A stretch of 64,000 nucleotides of DNA from Leucoraja ocellata (lineage: Eukaryota), in assembly GCA_036785375.1 (NCBI GenBank), contig JAWMAR010000667.1, forward strand, positions 558,001 to 622,000, read 5' to 3'. Below the pieces are notes generated by a model. It worked only from the letters and a program-made list of their open reading frames with translations. It had not been told where the DNA came from and searched no databases. Made by a program: the position numbers and the translations under genes. Positions within the stretch are counted from its first letter, which is position 1. Every line of letters begins with the position of its first letter. Shown here in pieces: positions 15,701-56,602 of the stretch.

Positions 15701-16472
15701 CTTTGGCACAACTCGTACATGCCGACTAAAATGCCCCATCGATGCTGGTCCTATTTGCCCATGTTTGAACCATATGTCCCTCAACCTTTCCTATCCATGC
15801 TCCAGTCCAAGTGTCTTTTATATGTTCTTATAATACCTATTCTATATACAAAGGATACAACAAAGGATACAGAGCACATTTATTATCACATACACCAAAT
15901 GGTGTAGTGAAATTTGACTTGCCAATGCAGTACAAGGATAAAGATAAGACACAACATTAAAGAATTTAACATAAAAACATATATACGTTATTATAGAGAC
16001 TGATGAACATTTGGTTACTAGGTGAACTGAGGTGAATGGGGACCAAGTGAATTTGACATAATCAGTAAGTGTTTATAAATAATTTCTACGCTTGCATGAG
16101 AATCGCATACAGCACTGTCAAGTTTGGAAGGATCCCAACCCAAAACGCCACCTATCCATTTGCTCCAGAGGTGCCGCCTGACCCGGTGAGTTACTCCAAC
16201 ATTTTGTGACCGTCACATCTCTTTTGGAAACGAGCTCTGGAAATGGCAAACTGTAATGGTATTTTCAATCGTGACTCATCATCAGAATCCGTGCATTGTG
16301 TGCGTGGAATCTTTTATTCCAGTTTCTTTCTTGGTCAGAGTTGCCAATGTGAAAGGCCAGCTTTATTAATGTTTTTTAGCAGTCTTAATAAGATTCTAAT
16401 TCAAATACCACTATTAATAGATTCAATTTTTTTAATCTTATTACAATCGGAGATGAAAAGCCCTTTAGTTAC

Positions 16473-16598
16473 AAGGGTCTCGACCCGAAACGTCACCCAT
16501 TCCTTCTCTCCAGAGATGCTGCCTGTCCCGCTGAGTTACTCCAGCATTTTGTGTCTATCGTTGGGTTTAAAGCAGCATCTTGCAGTTCCTTGCTACAC
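16473..16598 (+). mobile_element. Penelope-derived arm, 5'-truncated within the hammerhead (another degenerate arm at 16125-16210)
   Basis: AAGGGTCTCGACCCGAAACGTCACCCATTCC...GCAGTTCCTTGCTACAC. Confidence 0.75.
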
Positions 16599-17688
16599 CT
16601 TGCGCTACTTGAATTGTTATTTTCAAGCTAGCCATAAAAAATTTATAAATAATAAATCTCCATGGTGGAGTTCACCATCTTCACGTTGTGCTAGCTAGCG
16701 TTTGCAAGGTCCCAATTCAGTTCAGTTTATTGTCACGTGTACCGAGGTACAGTGAAAAGCTTTTGTTGTGCTAACCAGTCAGCGGAAAGACAATGCATGG
16801 TTACAATCGAGCCATTCACAGTGTCCAAATACATGATAAGAGAATAACGTTTAAGTGCAAGATAAAGCCAGTAAAGTCGGATCAAAGATATTCTGAGGGT
16901 GCCTGATGAGGGAGATAGTAGTTCAGGACTGTTCTCTGGTTGCGGTTGGATGGTTCAGTTGCCTGATAACACAGCTGGGAAGAAACTGTCCCTGAATCTG
17001 GAGGTGTGCGTTTTCACACTTCTAAACACATTTTTCTCTCTACAAAAAGTTTAGATTTCTGGAGCAAATATTAGCCAAGCAACTTTCTATTCACTTTGCT
17101 ATTAATTTTTGGGCCAAGAACTTGATGATCCTCAACGAAATGCTAGAAGGCAGAGTAACAGAGGTGTCCAAACAGTAATTGGCTTCCATTGTATGCTTGG
17201 CCCTGTCTCCTTGCAGTGAAAAGCCATTGCATAACATACTTGTGTTATTAATAAAAGAAGTATGAAATGAAGGTGTCTCTGTACGTAATCATAGCAGGAA
17301 GAAGAATGGTAGAAGGTGTATACTTAGATGTTGTAAATGCAATCTTTCTCTTTTAATTGGATTTTCTTTGGTGATGATTAACATCCTGACTGTTTCTATA
17401 GTGCTAAGATTAGGATACATAAGAATACTTGAAGATGGGCACAAAATGCTGGAGTTCATTCGCTCGTGTGTCAGACGATATATAGCTCGCTGTCGGCTTC
17501 TGTCGTGGTCCAACACGTTGGCAGAGTTGGTTGCACGATGCGTCGCAGAGTGCATCATGTCATCGTTTCCAGGGATTGCCACACAAGGAAGCTTCTGTCA
17601 TGATCCCCATGCTGGAGTAACTCAGCGGGACATGGCAGCATCTTTGGAGAGACGGAATGGGTGACATTTCTGATCGACAACCCTTCTT

Positions 17689-17742
17689 GGGGTGGGAGAT
17701 TGCAACCTTCACGTGGTCCGCCCTGTTTCGACGAATGCAATC
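17689..17742 (+). ncRNA. Minimal HDV-like (CPEB3-type) self-cleaving ribozyme, predicted
   Basis: P1 GGGGTGG(17689-95)/CCGCCCT(17718-24) with G1-U wobble; P2 GATTGCA(17698-704)/TGCAATC(17736-42); P3 ACC/GGT; L3 TTCACGT; GT after P1; J4/2 CGAA with candidate catalytic C at 17732; P4 reduced to TTCGA. Confidence 0.85.
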
Positions 17743-17831
17743 AACACCCGGTGTGCACAATCAAATAAGTTCAAATAGAACAAGTTGTCCTACAACCTTT
17801 AGGCTGTGCACGTCATACGCAAGAAGAAGAG
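17689..17831 (+). mobile_element. 143-nt non-autonomous SINE-like retroelement with 5' HDV-like ribozyme and (AAG)n tail
   Basis: Perfect 9-bp direct repeat ACCCTTCTT at 17680-17688 and 17832-17840; 3' end CATACGCAAGAAGAAGA resembles RTE-type tails; interrupts a Penelope-derived arm. Confidence 0.8.
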
Positions 17832-17949
17832 ACCCTTCTTCATAGGGTGAGAAGGAGTCTAGAGATATGGAAGGGTAAGGTGGGGTTTTTTTCGTATGAC
17901 TGTTGGCAAATCAAATACCTTGTATGTTTACATACTTGGACAATAAATT

Positions 17950-18440
17950 AGTTACAATTACAATTATTCCTTGTGCCTATCTAAAACCCTCTTAAACACC
18001 ACTGGTGTATCTGCCTCCACCACCACCCCTGGCAATGTGTTCCAGGCCTTACAACTCTGTGTTAATAAAATAAAATCTTGCTCGGCACATCCTTCCTTGA
18101 ACTTTAAACCCCCCCCCCCCCCCTACCTCCCCACCTCTATAGCTATACCCTCTAGTGTTGGATATTTGCCACTCCAGGATAAAGGTTCTGACTGTCTACC
18201 CTATCTATGCCTCTCATCATTTTGCATACATCTATCGAGCCTTCCCTCAACCTCTGACTTTCCAGAGGAAACAATCCAAGTCTATCCATTGTCTTCCTGT
18301 AGCTGAAATTCTCTAATCGAGGCAGCATTCTGGTAAACCCCACTCTGCACCCTCTCCAAAGCCTTCACATCTTTCCTGTAATGGGGTGGCCAGACCTGCA
18401 CGCAATAGTCCCAAATGCAGCCTAAACCAAAGACTTACAG
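17950..18440 (-). mobile_element. Degenerate CR1 LINE fragment (another 3' end at 18858-19060, +)
   Basis: FTRMLPRLENFSY...RLGLFPLE. Confidence 0.7.
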
Positions 18441-18546
18441 GTATAGAGGTGCACCATGGGCGCTTGTCATGCATTCTGTCAATGCTTAATGAATTATCAT
18501 TGCTATTTTTACTTGCCAGAGTTAGTTAGAAATGTAAATATTATTT

Positions 18547-18848
18547 GGCACGGGGAGCAGCAGTAGTTGCTGCCTTACAGCGCCAGAGACCAGGGTTTGA
18601 TCCTGCCTGCGGGTGCTGTCCTGTAAGGAGTTTACGTGTTCTCCCCGTGACCTGCGTGGGTTTTCTCTGAGATCTTCGGTTTCCTCCCACACTCCAAAGA
18701 CTTGCAGGTTTGTAGGTTAATTGGCTTGGTCAATGTAAAAATTGTCCCTAGTGTAGAACAGTGTTAAATGTCCGGGGATTGCTGGTCGGTGCGGACTTAG
18801 TGGGCCGAAGGGCCTGAATTCTTCACTTTATCTCTAAACGGAACTAAA
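18547..18848 (+). mobile_element. HE1-type SINE
   Basis: Family match. Confidence 0.8.
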
Positions 18849-19799
18849 TTAATGTGGAATTACTGTGGAATTCTCTGCCACAGAAGGCAGGTGAGGCCAG
18901 TTCATTGGCTATATTTAAGAGTGAGTTGGATGTGGCCCTTGTGGCTAAAGGGATCAGGGGGTATGGAGAGAAGGCAGGTATGGGATACTGAGTTGGATGA
19001 TCAGCCATGATCATATTGAATTGCCTACTCCTGCACCTATTTTCTACGTTTCTATGTTTCTAATTGATTTCTAAGTTTAAAAAGTAAATTATTTTGTAAA
19101 ACTCTATTCTAAATAATTAACTTGCCTGTCATCGCTAAAATCCTTAATGTGACTTTGCGAATATCTAACACAATCTTGAGGAACCATTCTGCTTGAGCTC
19201 TCTCCAAACCATTGTGTCTACAATTTAATACAAGTTCGATCAGATTTATAATAAGAGGATAAAATATTATCACCGCCAACGGTGCCAGCAAATTTGTGAA
19301 ATGAAACATCAAAATCCCATTTGGAATAGAATTACAAACTTAGTAATGTAATTTTAAGAATGAATCCAGCATCTAATGGTTTACATGGCATTGACAAGGT
19401 CATGTAGAAATCAGTACATTTAATTTTGGATGAAAGTCTGGATTGCAAGAATCGGGAGGAGATAGATCATTCTTGGATCAAAAGTGTTGAAAGTAATGGG
19501 CCTGTCCCACTTGGATGATTTTTTAGGCGACTACAGGCGACTAAGCTGCCACAGCCAGACATTAAAAACTGCTTTTTTCCACGAGTAGTAGCTCTATTCA
19601 ATGTCCAAAAATCTGCAGCATCCTTTTGCTCTGGTATTTTAATTCACATGTTTAATCAATAATGTTTTATTATTAATGTTTTATGTGTTATTTCTAACTG
19701 TCACTGTGGGTGGAGCACCAAGGCAAATTCCTTGTATGTGAATATAATTGGCCAATAAACATTCATTCATTCAGTACACGTGACATTAAACTAAACTAA

Positions 19800-51563: not shown

Positions 51564-51858
51564 TTGCTTCGCTCGTGTGTTAGACGATGTTCTGCCATTG
51601 CTTTGCCACAGCCAGTGTCACATCTGTGGAGATCGTCTGCAGCGCATACCGCTCATCCGCAAGTCGGTAGGTGGGCCGTTGTCTGTATCTCTCCACAGTT
51701 GCACTTGTCAGAGTCCGAGAGGCCTCACTTCTTCAGGTTGAGTCCGCAACGTCCCACTCCGGTGTGGGGGCAGTTTAGGGCTTTCCAGGTAGTATAAGGC
51801 AGGTGGTGGCCTGGTGCCGTCTGGTGTTTGGTTTTGGTGCCTGGCTCTGTTGGCTCTC
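51564..51858 (-). mobile_element. RTE-like LINE 3' fragment with 10-bp TSD (related piece at 17455-17610)
   Basis: Minus strand WKALNCPHTGVGRCGLNLKK*GLSDSDKCNCGEIQTTAHL (C-terminal Cys/His motif); GTCTAGCACT at 51554-63 and 51859-68. Confidence 0.75.
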
Positions 51859-55390: not shown

Positions 55391-55484
55391 TCATGACCCA
55401 TACAGTGTTAGAGTACAACTGTCTGTCTCGAAAGGTCTATTTGTAGGTCCGTGCTTCATTTGTTTGGCCAAATTGTGAACTCAC

Positions 55485-56428
55485 CTGATCAAATGGTGCC
55501 ACCTCCTTTCCTTCCATTTCAGGCGGTGTTACTGATTTAGATACCGGTTTGGACACTGGTTTTGGTGCAGGTTTGGTTTCTGGCTTGGGCTGAGGTCTGG
55601 GTTCCGGCTGGGGTTGCAGCGGTTTCTCCTGTTTGGGACGTGGTGCAGCTTCATGCACCCGAGGTGCTGGCTTTGGTTCAGGTTCTGGTTGTACTTTTTT
55701 TACTTTGACCTCTGATTTTGGCTCTTGTACTGATGGTTTTGCTGGGATTGCTTCTTTCTTGAAGGACAAGGACGGGACGGGAACTACATCATCCAATAAA
55801 TCCAAAGGAGGGGGACCTACTTGCGGCCGCACAGCATAGCTGTGATAACTTTCATGGAACTGAAAATCAGTCTGACGACTGGGTGGGATAAGTTCTCTTG
55901 GTTTGCTCTTTAGATTTGTGTGAGGCTTATTTTCACTCCTTTCCAAAGGCTTTATGTCTAAATCACAGTTATTTTGCAACTGTTCCTCCATTTTTGTCGG
56001 TGTCCTTCTGTTACTTTGTTGACTAGAGCTCCTTGAAACATTTCGGCTGCTGGCCGTTGACCTGTTCTCAATCTGGACGGTCAACAAATCGGAAGGTGCT
56101 CCAGGATGACCGCTGGATCGGCTGCTTGTGCTTTTGTTTTTAGATTGCTCCCCATTCCAGTTGCCTGGACTCAAGTAGCTGGGGTCCTCCATTTTAAGAT
56201 TTGAGTCTCTAATCTTTCGTACTTCTGGTGGTGTCTCCACAGGGCTCGGTGAAGGAGTGACAGCAGGAGATGACTCGAATGGAGTTGTGGCTGTCCCATG
56301 GAGGCCAGGGCTCTCTGGTGGGGTAGGTGGAGGTTCCTCTATTGATGGGGGTTCTTGGTCAGTGTTTTCCACATGATCCCCATTCTCTATCAGTTCGTGC
56401 AGCAGTTTTCGTTTTTGATATTCTGGAC
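55485..56428 (-). CDS. JPH2: Junctophilin-2, large internal coding exon (divergent Pro-rich region; equivalent of mammalian exon 4)
   Basis: Acceptor tttttcag|GT at 56428 and donor CAG|gtgagt at 55485; 944 nt = 2 nt + 314 codons, open. Reads (G)PEYQKRKLLHELIENG...YLSPGNWNGE...YHSYAVR...PFDQ, matching the JPH2-type motifs GPEYQKRRLLQEILEN, LSPGAWNGE and YHSYAVR. Extends ORF 55437..56372 upstream by 18 codons. Confidence 0.93.
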
Positions 56429-56602
56429 CTGAAAAAGATTAATTATTGCAAGCCATTCAGTACAATTGCAATGTGTAGATTTTTCTGTATTACTTCAATG
56501 CTGTTATATTTCTATTATCCTTTACACAGATCAATAACAAAAATAATGAAAAATGAATGTACATGAAAATAGAACCCCAGTAACCTGGTAAATAATCCTA
56601 AA

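Follow-up and report, generated by a model that had tools for sequence, protein, structure and literature searches.

The window, a stretch of 64,000 nucleotides, carries at positions 17689-17831 of the forward strand a 143-nt insert, in which all the features read from the letters in a preliminary description were found in place. The insert is flanked by a target-site duplication, ACCCTTCTT, delimited by sequence comparison, whose 5' copy (17680-17688, +) lies within an abundant host repeat and whose 3' copy occupies 17832-17840 (+); 15 other copies of this repeat in the window run through the insertion site uninterrupted. The 9-bp duplication stands as first described, but the original may have been 11-12 nt long, the family mode, in which case the 3' end of the insert would move 2-3 nt to the left. 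Similarly, a GTTC/GAAC hairpin reported inside the insert exists in this copy and in its paralogue, but depends on their substitution, the family having A at 17770. In the paralogous copy, on contig C131, pairs of both P1 and P3 are disrupted; its site had been considered as an empty allele and was rejected as such, the contig carrying both this element and the second one described below.

A second, independent bipartite element of Vingi type, belonging to a family that we call B, lies in the same host repeat, 80 nt away, at 17456-17608 on the reverse strand, between duplications at 17446-17455 and 17609-17618. Family B (1,254 candidates in the genome) has an HDV-type head of about 88 nt with a long P4, decayed in this copy by a 2-nt insertion in L3/P3. 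Its last 20 nt or so match a 5'-truncated 3' fragment of a LINE, VB, at 51564-51858 (-), flanked by a 10-nt duplication, and VB, when walked to its start, begins with the family-B head, making it the partner of family B. This fragment was the lead to all the Vingi-type families discussed here.

Two further observations concern the surroundings. The locus on C131 aligned with window positions 15894-19126, together with many other locus pairs, indicates that large parts of the genome are present twice at 95-99% identity, through segmental or whole-genome duplication or as uncollapsed haplotypes. Besides, a proline-rich open frame of 333 codons at 55437-56438 (-), which has no Pfam match, probably represents a large host-gene exon.

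The fold of the head

The preliminary description had read a complete HDV double pseudoknot into the first 54 nt of the insert. An HDV descriptor parses 17689-17742 (+) identically, this being its sole match on both strands of the window, with no match in 15 Markov-1 resamples of the window, and the segment is identical to the family majority at 54 of 54 positions. P1 (17689-17695/17718-17724), P2 (17698-17704/17736-17742), P3 (17705-17707/17715-17717) and P1.1 (C17710-G17725) follow the nested double-pseudoknot order, with L3 at 17708-17714 and only a remnant of P4 at 17727-17731. In head numbering, the G1-U36 wobble, U20 and G25 in L3, and C44 as the first base of J4/2 are all present, positions whose roles in HDV-like ribozymes are known (PMC4836649, in part); P1 holds a second wobble, U5-G32, and a decayed VB copy has A in place of G25. 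The predicted catalytic cytosine, at 17732 (+), corresponds to C57 of the CPEB3 ribozyme and C75 of HDV, and is invariant in six related heads.

A check against Rfam, proposed in the preliminary description, gave a weak result: the HDV-F-prausnitzii model aligns to exactly 17689-17742 with 14.4 bits (E 5.9), below its cut-off of 44, while the CPEB3 model (RF00622, cut-off 35 bits) has no match there, and no Rfam family reaches its gathering cut-off anywhere in the window. Rfam models of HDV type expect a P4, and this head is nearly P4-less. The whole insert folds no better than its shuffles (z -0.96), as expected from a folding program that cannot form pseudoknots.

Aligning A1, the subfamily to which the insert belongs, with the sister subfamily A2, VB, VD and two metagenome elements, all related and selected because they parse (a seventh, L443, was left out for misalignment), gives 18 pairs in which 108 of 108 cells are paired, 11 of the pairs having changed on both sides; none of 500 shuffles reaches this figure, and slid controls are 36-48% paired. 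The length of P4 varies among the heads from five bases in A1 to about 38 in VB. The first 54 bases are predicted to form a self-cleaving HDV-type ribozyme. A competing pairing visible in the sequence, of G37-U38 with A43-C44 around a UUCG loop, could mask the catalytic cytosine.

Once inserted, A1 copies decay neutrally, with no selection on the catalytic cytosine: its C-to-T changes are as frequent as those at a control CpG in the P4 loop, both genome-wide (248 versus 247) and among 84 copies (7 versus 8). An apparent depletion among the first 100 head matches listed, counted by eye (2 C-to-T and 16 G-to-A, against 16 and 17 at the control CpG), was not repeated in an independent sample or genome-wide, and selection at this site was discarded. 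The four CpGs of the head (nt 24-45) show about twice as many sense-strand G-to-A as C-to-T changes (14-18 versus 6-8 of 85), an excess that the 3' CpGs lack. Outside CpGs, the head has diverged by 3.1% and the 3' part by 4.9%, the latter figure possibly inflated by alignment near the tail.

The family and its partner LINE

The 3.44-Gb genome holds 2,133 candidate copies, and all 40 that were scored are full length, at 94-100%. An exact 26-nt body motif of A1 has 4,323 genome matches and the head pattern 6,183, against none for the reversed head pattern; such counts are lower bounds for diverged copies and are somewhat inflated by duplicated segments. With at least 4,323 copies, target duplications that vary between insertions and a simple-repeat tail, the insert is the multicopy retroposon it had been taken for. 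Its 5' end was mapped in the first 100 copies listed by the 3' body motif, a selection that leaves the head out, reduced to 90 independent copies by removing 10 segmental duplicates. The 5' end is reached in 85 of the 90 (G at position 1 in 74 of these 85), and 47 of 58 scored duplications, mostly 11-13 nt long, end within 1 nt of G1, so that G1, as first proposed, is the first base of the element. In the 135-nt subfamily A2, P1 pairs U5 with A where A1 has U5-G, and J4/2 reads C-U-A-A.

Near full-length pieces of the family occur in four sequencing runs from four organisms. In one polyA RNA run, 917 reads cover both strands of the element, many of them extending past G1 into the flanks, so the family is transcribed as a passenger in that organism. 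This run, from a library not designed for 5'-OH ends, shows no pile-up of read starts at G1; 271 loose read ends fall on the 5' boundary.

The partner LINE came from the other Vingi-type families. VC, VD and VE were found by protein search after VB, and none of the four matches the A1 element, which eliminated them as partners; their ORFs all end in Trp, four codons and a stop. Searching for this frame before the element tail led to subfamily A2 and to a further LINE, VA. The 3' fragments of VA (970 candidates) share element nt 102-143, the last 42 nt or so; its long copies open with an A2-type head, behind which an ATG lies at nt 106 or thereabouts, and one insertion of about 2.77 kb (L422/L430) has both ends and a 12-nt duplication. 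In the insert, 17689-17767 (+) is homologous to the VA 5' UTR (82-90% across element nt 1-79), and 17790-17831 (+) to the VA 3' end, comprising the last codons, the stop codon at 17800-17802, a short 3' UTR and the (AAG)n tail. A2 consists of VA nt 1 to about 95 joined to the last 41 nt or so; A1 arose later and has a changed middle part. Judged by these homologies, A1 is an internal deletion of VA, made of its first 80-95 and last 42 bases approximately, and the insert accordingly has the make-up of a bipartite non-autonomous LINE, sharing both ends with one autonomous element and having no ORF. The earlier statement that it lacks tRNA A and B boxes holds: a tRNA gene search found no tRNA gene in the element, and A- and B-box patterns have no match in it, which sets it apart from tRNA-derived SINEs. 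At L210/L223 and L232, a VA 3' fragment directly adjoins an A2-type head in inverted orientation, an arrangement that twin priming or a template switch could produce.

VA is about 2.8 kb long and has a single ORF, which aligns along residues 18-963 of a Vingi-type protein (P0004) with 28-52% identity in segments. Six unbroken pieces give Pfam matches to APE and RT and none to RNase H; all VA copies seen are broken. In an RT tree built without named Vingi or RTE proteins, and with two VA rows under half filled, VA sits on short branches beside VB-VE and an Anolis protein, outside the core clade that these form with 99/99 support, and far from both CR1-like rows and rows that we take to be RTE-like from a motif, the latter on a branch of 3.7. 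The Vingi definition, a compact single ORF with APE and RT and no RNase H (PMC13708176), describes VA as well. On these comparisons VA can firmly be called Vingi-type and, less firmly, Vingi proper.

The two ends of VA are also complementary to each other. A GTGCACA/TGTGCAC stem, with its 5' arm at 17753-17759 (+) and its 3' arm at 17805-17811 (+), joins what in the LINE are the 5' UTR directly behind the ribozyme and the 3' UTR. Perfect stems of 7-9 pairs, 5-10 nt behind the ribozyme, occur in five of six comparisons, namely VA, SINE B, VC and two VD copies, for which controls at least as long numbered 0, 11, 22, 33 and 20 of 500, respectively; in the sixth, a decayed VB copy, the stem is absent (control 354 of 500). 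The stem sequences differ among families, the VA arm including a palindrome, and an 8-pair stem with one G-U was seen by eye in the metagenome element L433. This recurrence suggests that the end stem is a conserved structural signal.

Several observations bear on the sister families in their own right. Relatives of VD are APE-RT proteins of 900-1000 residues in sea urchin, lancelet, Anolis, a teleost and insects. VD is young, with 95-98% identity between copies, and its closest database relative, P0001 (85%), clusters at 90% with a protein of the teleost Aldrovandia affinis; if the host is a cartilaginous fish, this likeness hints at horizontal transfer. The VC head (L150, oriented 483-580) shows an HDV-type P1, P3 and L3 with a long P4, with no intact G1 in the copies seen; the HDV descriptor failed to parse it and Rfam gave no match. 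One truncated copy of VE is part of a repeated unit that 14 contigs or more carry with 98-99% identity (L158/L159, L166-L179).

Likeness to the CPEB3 ribozyme

The CPEB3 ribozyme has been reported only from mammals, with no outgroups (PMC8233481, in part). The preliminary description had guessed that the insert might bear on its origin, and the bearing proves stronger than guessed, the evidence coming from the sister families VD, L433 and Vingi-2. The three VD 5' ends (L157 4301-4385 (-), L163 423-507 and L152 512-596) score 64.2, 59.2 and 53.5 bits on RF00622, all above the cut-off of 35, and L433 scores 55.6; VB reaches 32.9. Outside P4, 45 of 49 positions of L433 agree with the CPEB3 consensus, among them all 34 stem positions of P1, P2 and P3. 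The supplement of Kojima 2018 (PMC5786205, in part) prints the 5' end of a Vingi-2 from gharial, together with an alligator SINE that derives from Vingi-2. Leaving the P4 apex aside, 52 of 54 positions of the former agree by eye with the consensus, as do both 7-nt P4 strands of the latter; the accessible part of that paper makes no mention of CPEB3. VD is tied to Repbase Vingi-2_Gav by head similarity only.

These likenesses could reflect convergence on the HDV fold instead of descent. The choice of sequence is narrowed by stems that are short and rich in G+C and by a catalytic core that is fixed; the A1 head and family B fall low or below the cut-off on the CPEB3 model, and the metagenome loci (15 of 80 scanned with Rfam) give one hit above that cut-off and one below. 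A relaxed descriptor found heads in two of 24 upstream regions, many of which may be truncated or decayed. Convergence nevertheless leaves unexplained why L433 equals the CPEB3 consensus at every stem position when 11 stem pairs vary freely among Vingi heads, why the gharial and alligator elements agree so closely with it, and why the two best-scoring families, VD and L433, group together by RT (89/93). Because those 11 pairs vary freely, descent is the likelier explanation and convergence seems unlikely. The mammalian CPEB3 ribozyme is therefore probably an exapted copy of a Vingi 5' end, as far as sequence comparison can tell, and the A1 head takes its place, by the same comparison, as a more distant member of the series that links Vingi heads with CPEB3.

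In the literature searched, we found no publication that connects CPEB3 with Vingi, and none on family A or on Vingi ribozymes. We also lean, with somewhat more reserve, towards a wider picture, in which Vingi LINEs throughout animals carry HDV-type ribozyme 5' ends, ranging from P4-less heads of 54 nt to near-copies of CPEB3, one such 5' end was domesticated as the CPEB3 ribozyme of mammals, and mini-elements that excise themselves, need no promoter and have ends pairing behind the ribozyme number in the thousands in vertebrate genomes like the present one. If so, the CPEB3 ribozyme would find both its outgroup and its origin among Vingi 5' ends, a question that phylogeny and cleavage assays could address.

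Mobilisation and comparison with known systems

Our main reading, which we hold at about 80%, is that the insert is a non-autonomous retrotransposon derived from both ends of a Vingi-type LINE, with a head predicted to self-cleave, and mobilised in trans. In the model, the ribozyme would cut the element out of a longer host transcript exactly at its first base, dispensing with a promoter of its own; the short 5'-OH RNA thus released would close the stem between its LINE-derived ends; the LINE endonuclease/reverse transcriptase would bind this RNA in trans; and the element would be inserted by target-primed reverse transcription that starts in the (AAG)n tail, leaving a duplication of 11-13 nt. 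Mobilisation in trans by a LINE, as proposed in the preliminary description, is supported as probable.

A precise 5' end could also follow from an internal promoter, as Pr77 provides for L1Tc. The element would then be the same Vingi derivative, but an internal Pol II promoter would fix its start at +1, and the ribozyme fold, inherited from the LINE, would be weak or idle in its shortened form or serve mainly as a protective 5' structure. Pr77 of L1Tc/NARTc is indeed both promoter and ribozyme (PMC3383444, in part), and the lack of a start pile-up in the RNA reads, the undepleted changes at the catalytic cytosine and the reduction of P4 to five bases all favour such an origin. An idle fold, however, would hardly keep 18 pairs and the catalytic cytosine across six divergent heads with compensatory changes, nor would both subfamilies be expected to retain C44 while the neighbouring base and a P1 pair change consistently; the neutral decay of dead copies is expected under either model. 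We regard the promoter account as improbable. The earlier proposal of a composite, ribozyme-headed SINE mobilised by an RTE-type LINE can hardly be right: bipartite RTE derivatives exist, some predicted to bear ribozymes (PMC5786205, in part), and an RTE-like family is abundant in this genome, but head and tail both come from VA, whose protein aligns along the Vingi-type one and whose RT lies far from the RTE-like rows.

If the main reading is correct, thousands of dispersed minimal self-cleaving RNAs could cut host introns and UTRs wherever they are inserted in sense. Vingi elements are under development as gene-insertion tools (PMC13708176), and a natural template of 140 nt would define the minimal cis signals as ribozyme, end-joining stem and tail. 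Ribozyme-headed internal deletions (NARTc, RIME, R2 SIDE) and bipartite Vingi deletions (the Vingi-1_EE derivatives) were already known; what is new lies in the clade and host concerned, in the minimal fold and in the probable connection with CPEB3.

Among related ribozymes, that of CPEB3 (RF00622; PMC8233481 and PMC4836649, both in part) has in common with the A1 head the L3, GU (G37-U38) and CGAA of J4/2, as the preliminary description had noted, and also the G1-U wobble, a single G-C pair as P1.1 and the spacing through nt 38. The A1 head differs in its stem sequences, its lack of P4 and its lack of a match to RF00622, and the CPEB3 ribozyme exists as one copy, in an intron. Minimal HDV-like and theta ribozymes (PMC10879173, in part) share with A1 the nested double pseudoknot without P4 and the catalytic cytosine as first base of J4/2; such P4-less ribozymes are active and reported almost wholly from gut phages, beside tRNAs, whereas the A1 head belongs to an animal retroelement.

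Among elements, Vingi-1_EE derivatives, SINE2-1_ACar and SINE2-1_AMi (PMC5786205, in part) are likewise bipartite internal deletions of Vingi LINEs. The R2 SIDEs of Drosophila (PMC3414825, in part) are internally deleted non-LTR elements whose sole requirements are an HDV-type ribozyme at the 5' end and a recognition sequence at the 3' end, and their heads cleave at +1 in vitro; they are rare, site-specific in 28S rDNA and of the restriction-like endonuclease clade, whereas the A1 family is dispersed, abundant and of APE type. The most similar layout is that of the trypanosome pairs NARTc/L1Tc and RIME/ingi (PMC3383444, in part), short elements with both ends of an Ingi-group LINE, an HDV-type ribozyme at +1 and duplications of 11-12 nt. 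NARTc cleaves at +1 in vitro, and A1 is predicted to do so and would need no promoter. Compared with NARTc, A1 has a Vingi-type partner LINE without RNase H, a 3.4-Gb animal genome as its host, 140 nt instead of 263, a 54-nt head without a real P4, an (AAG)n tail, and thousands of copies.
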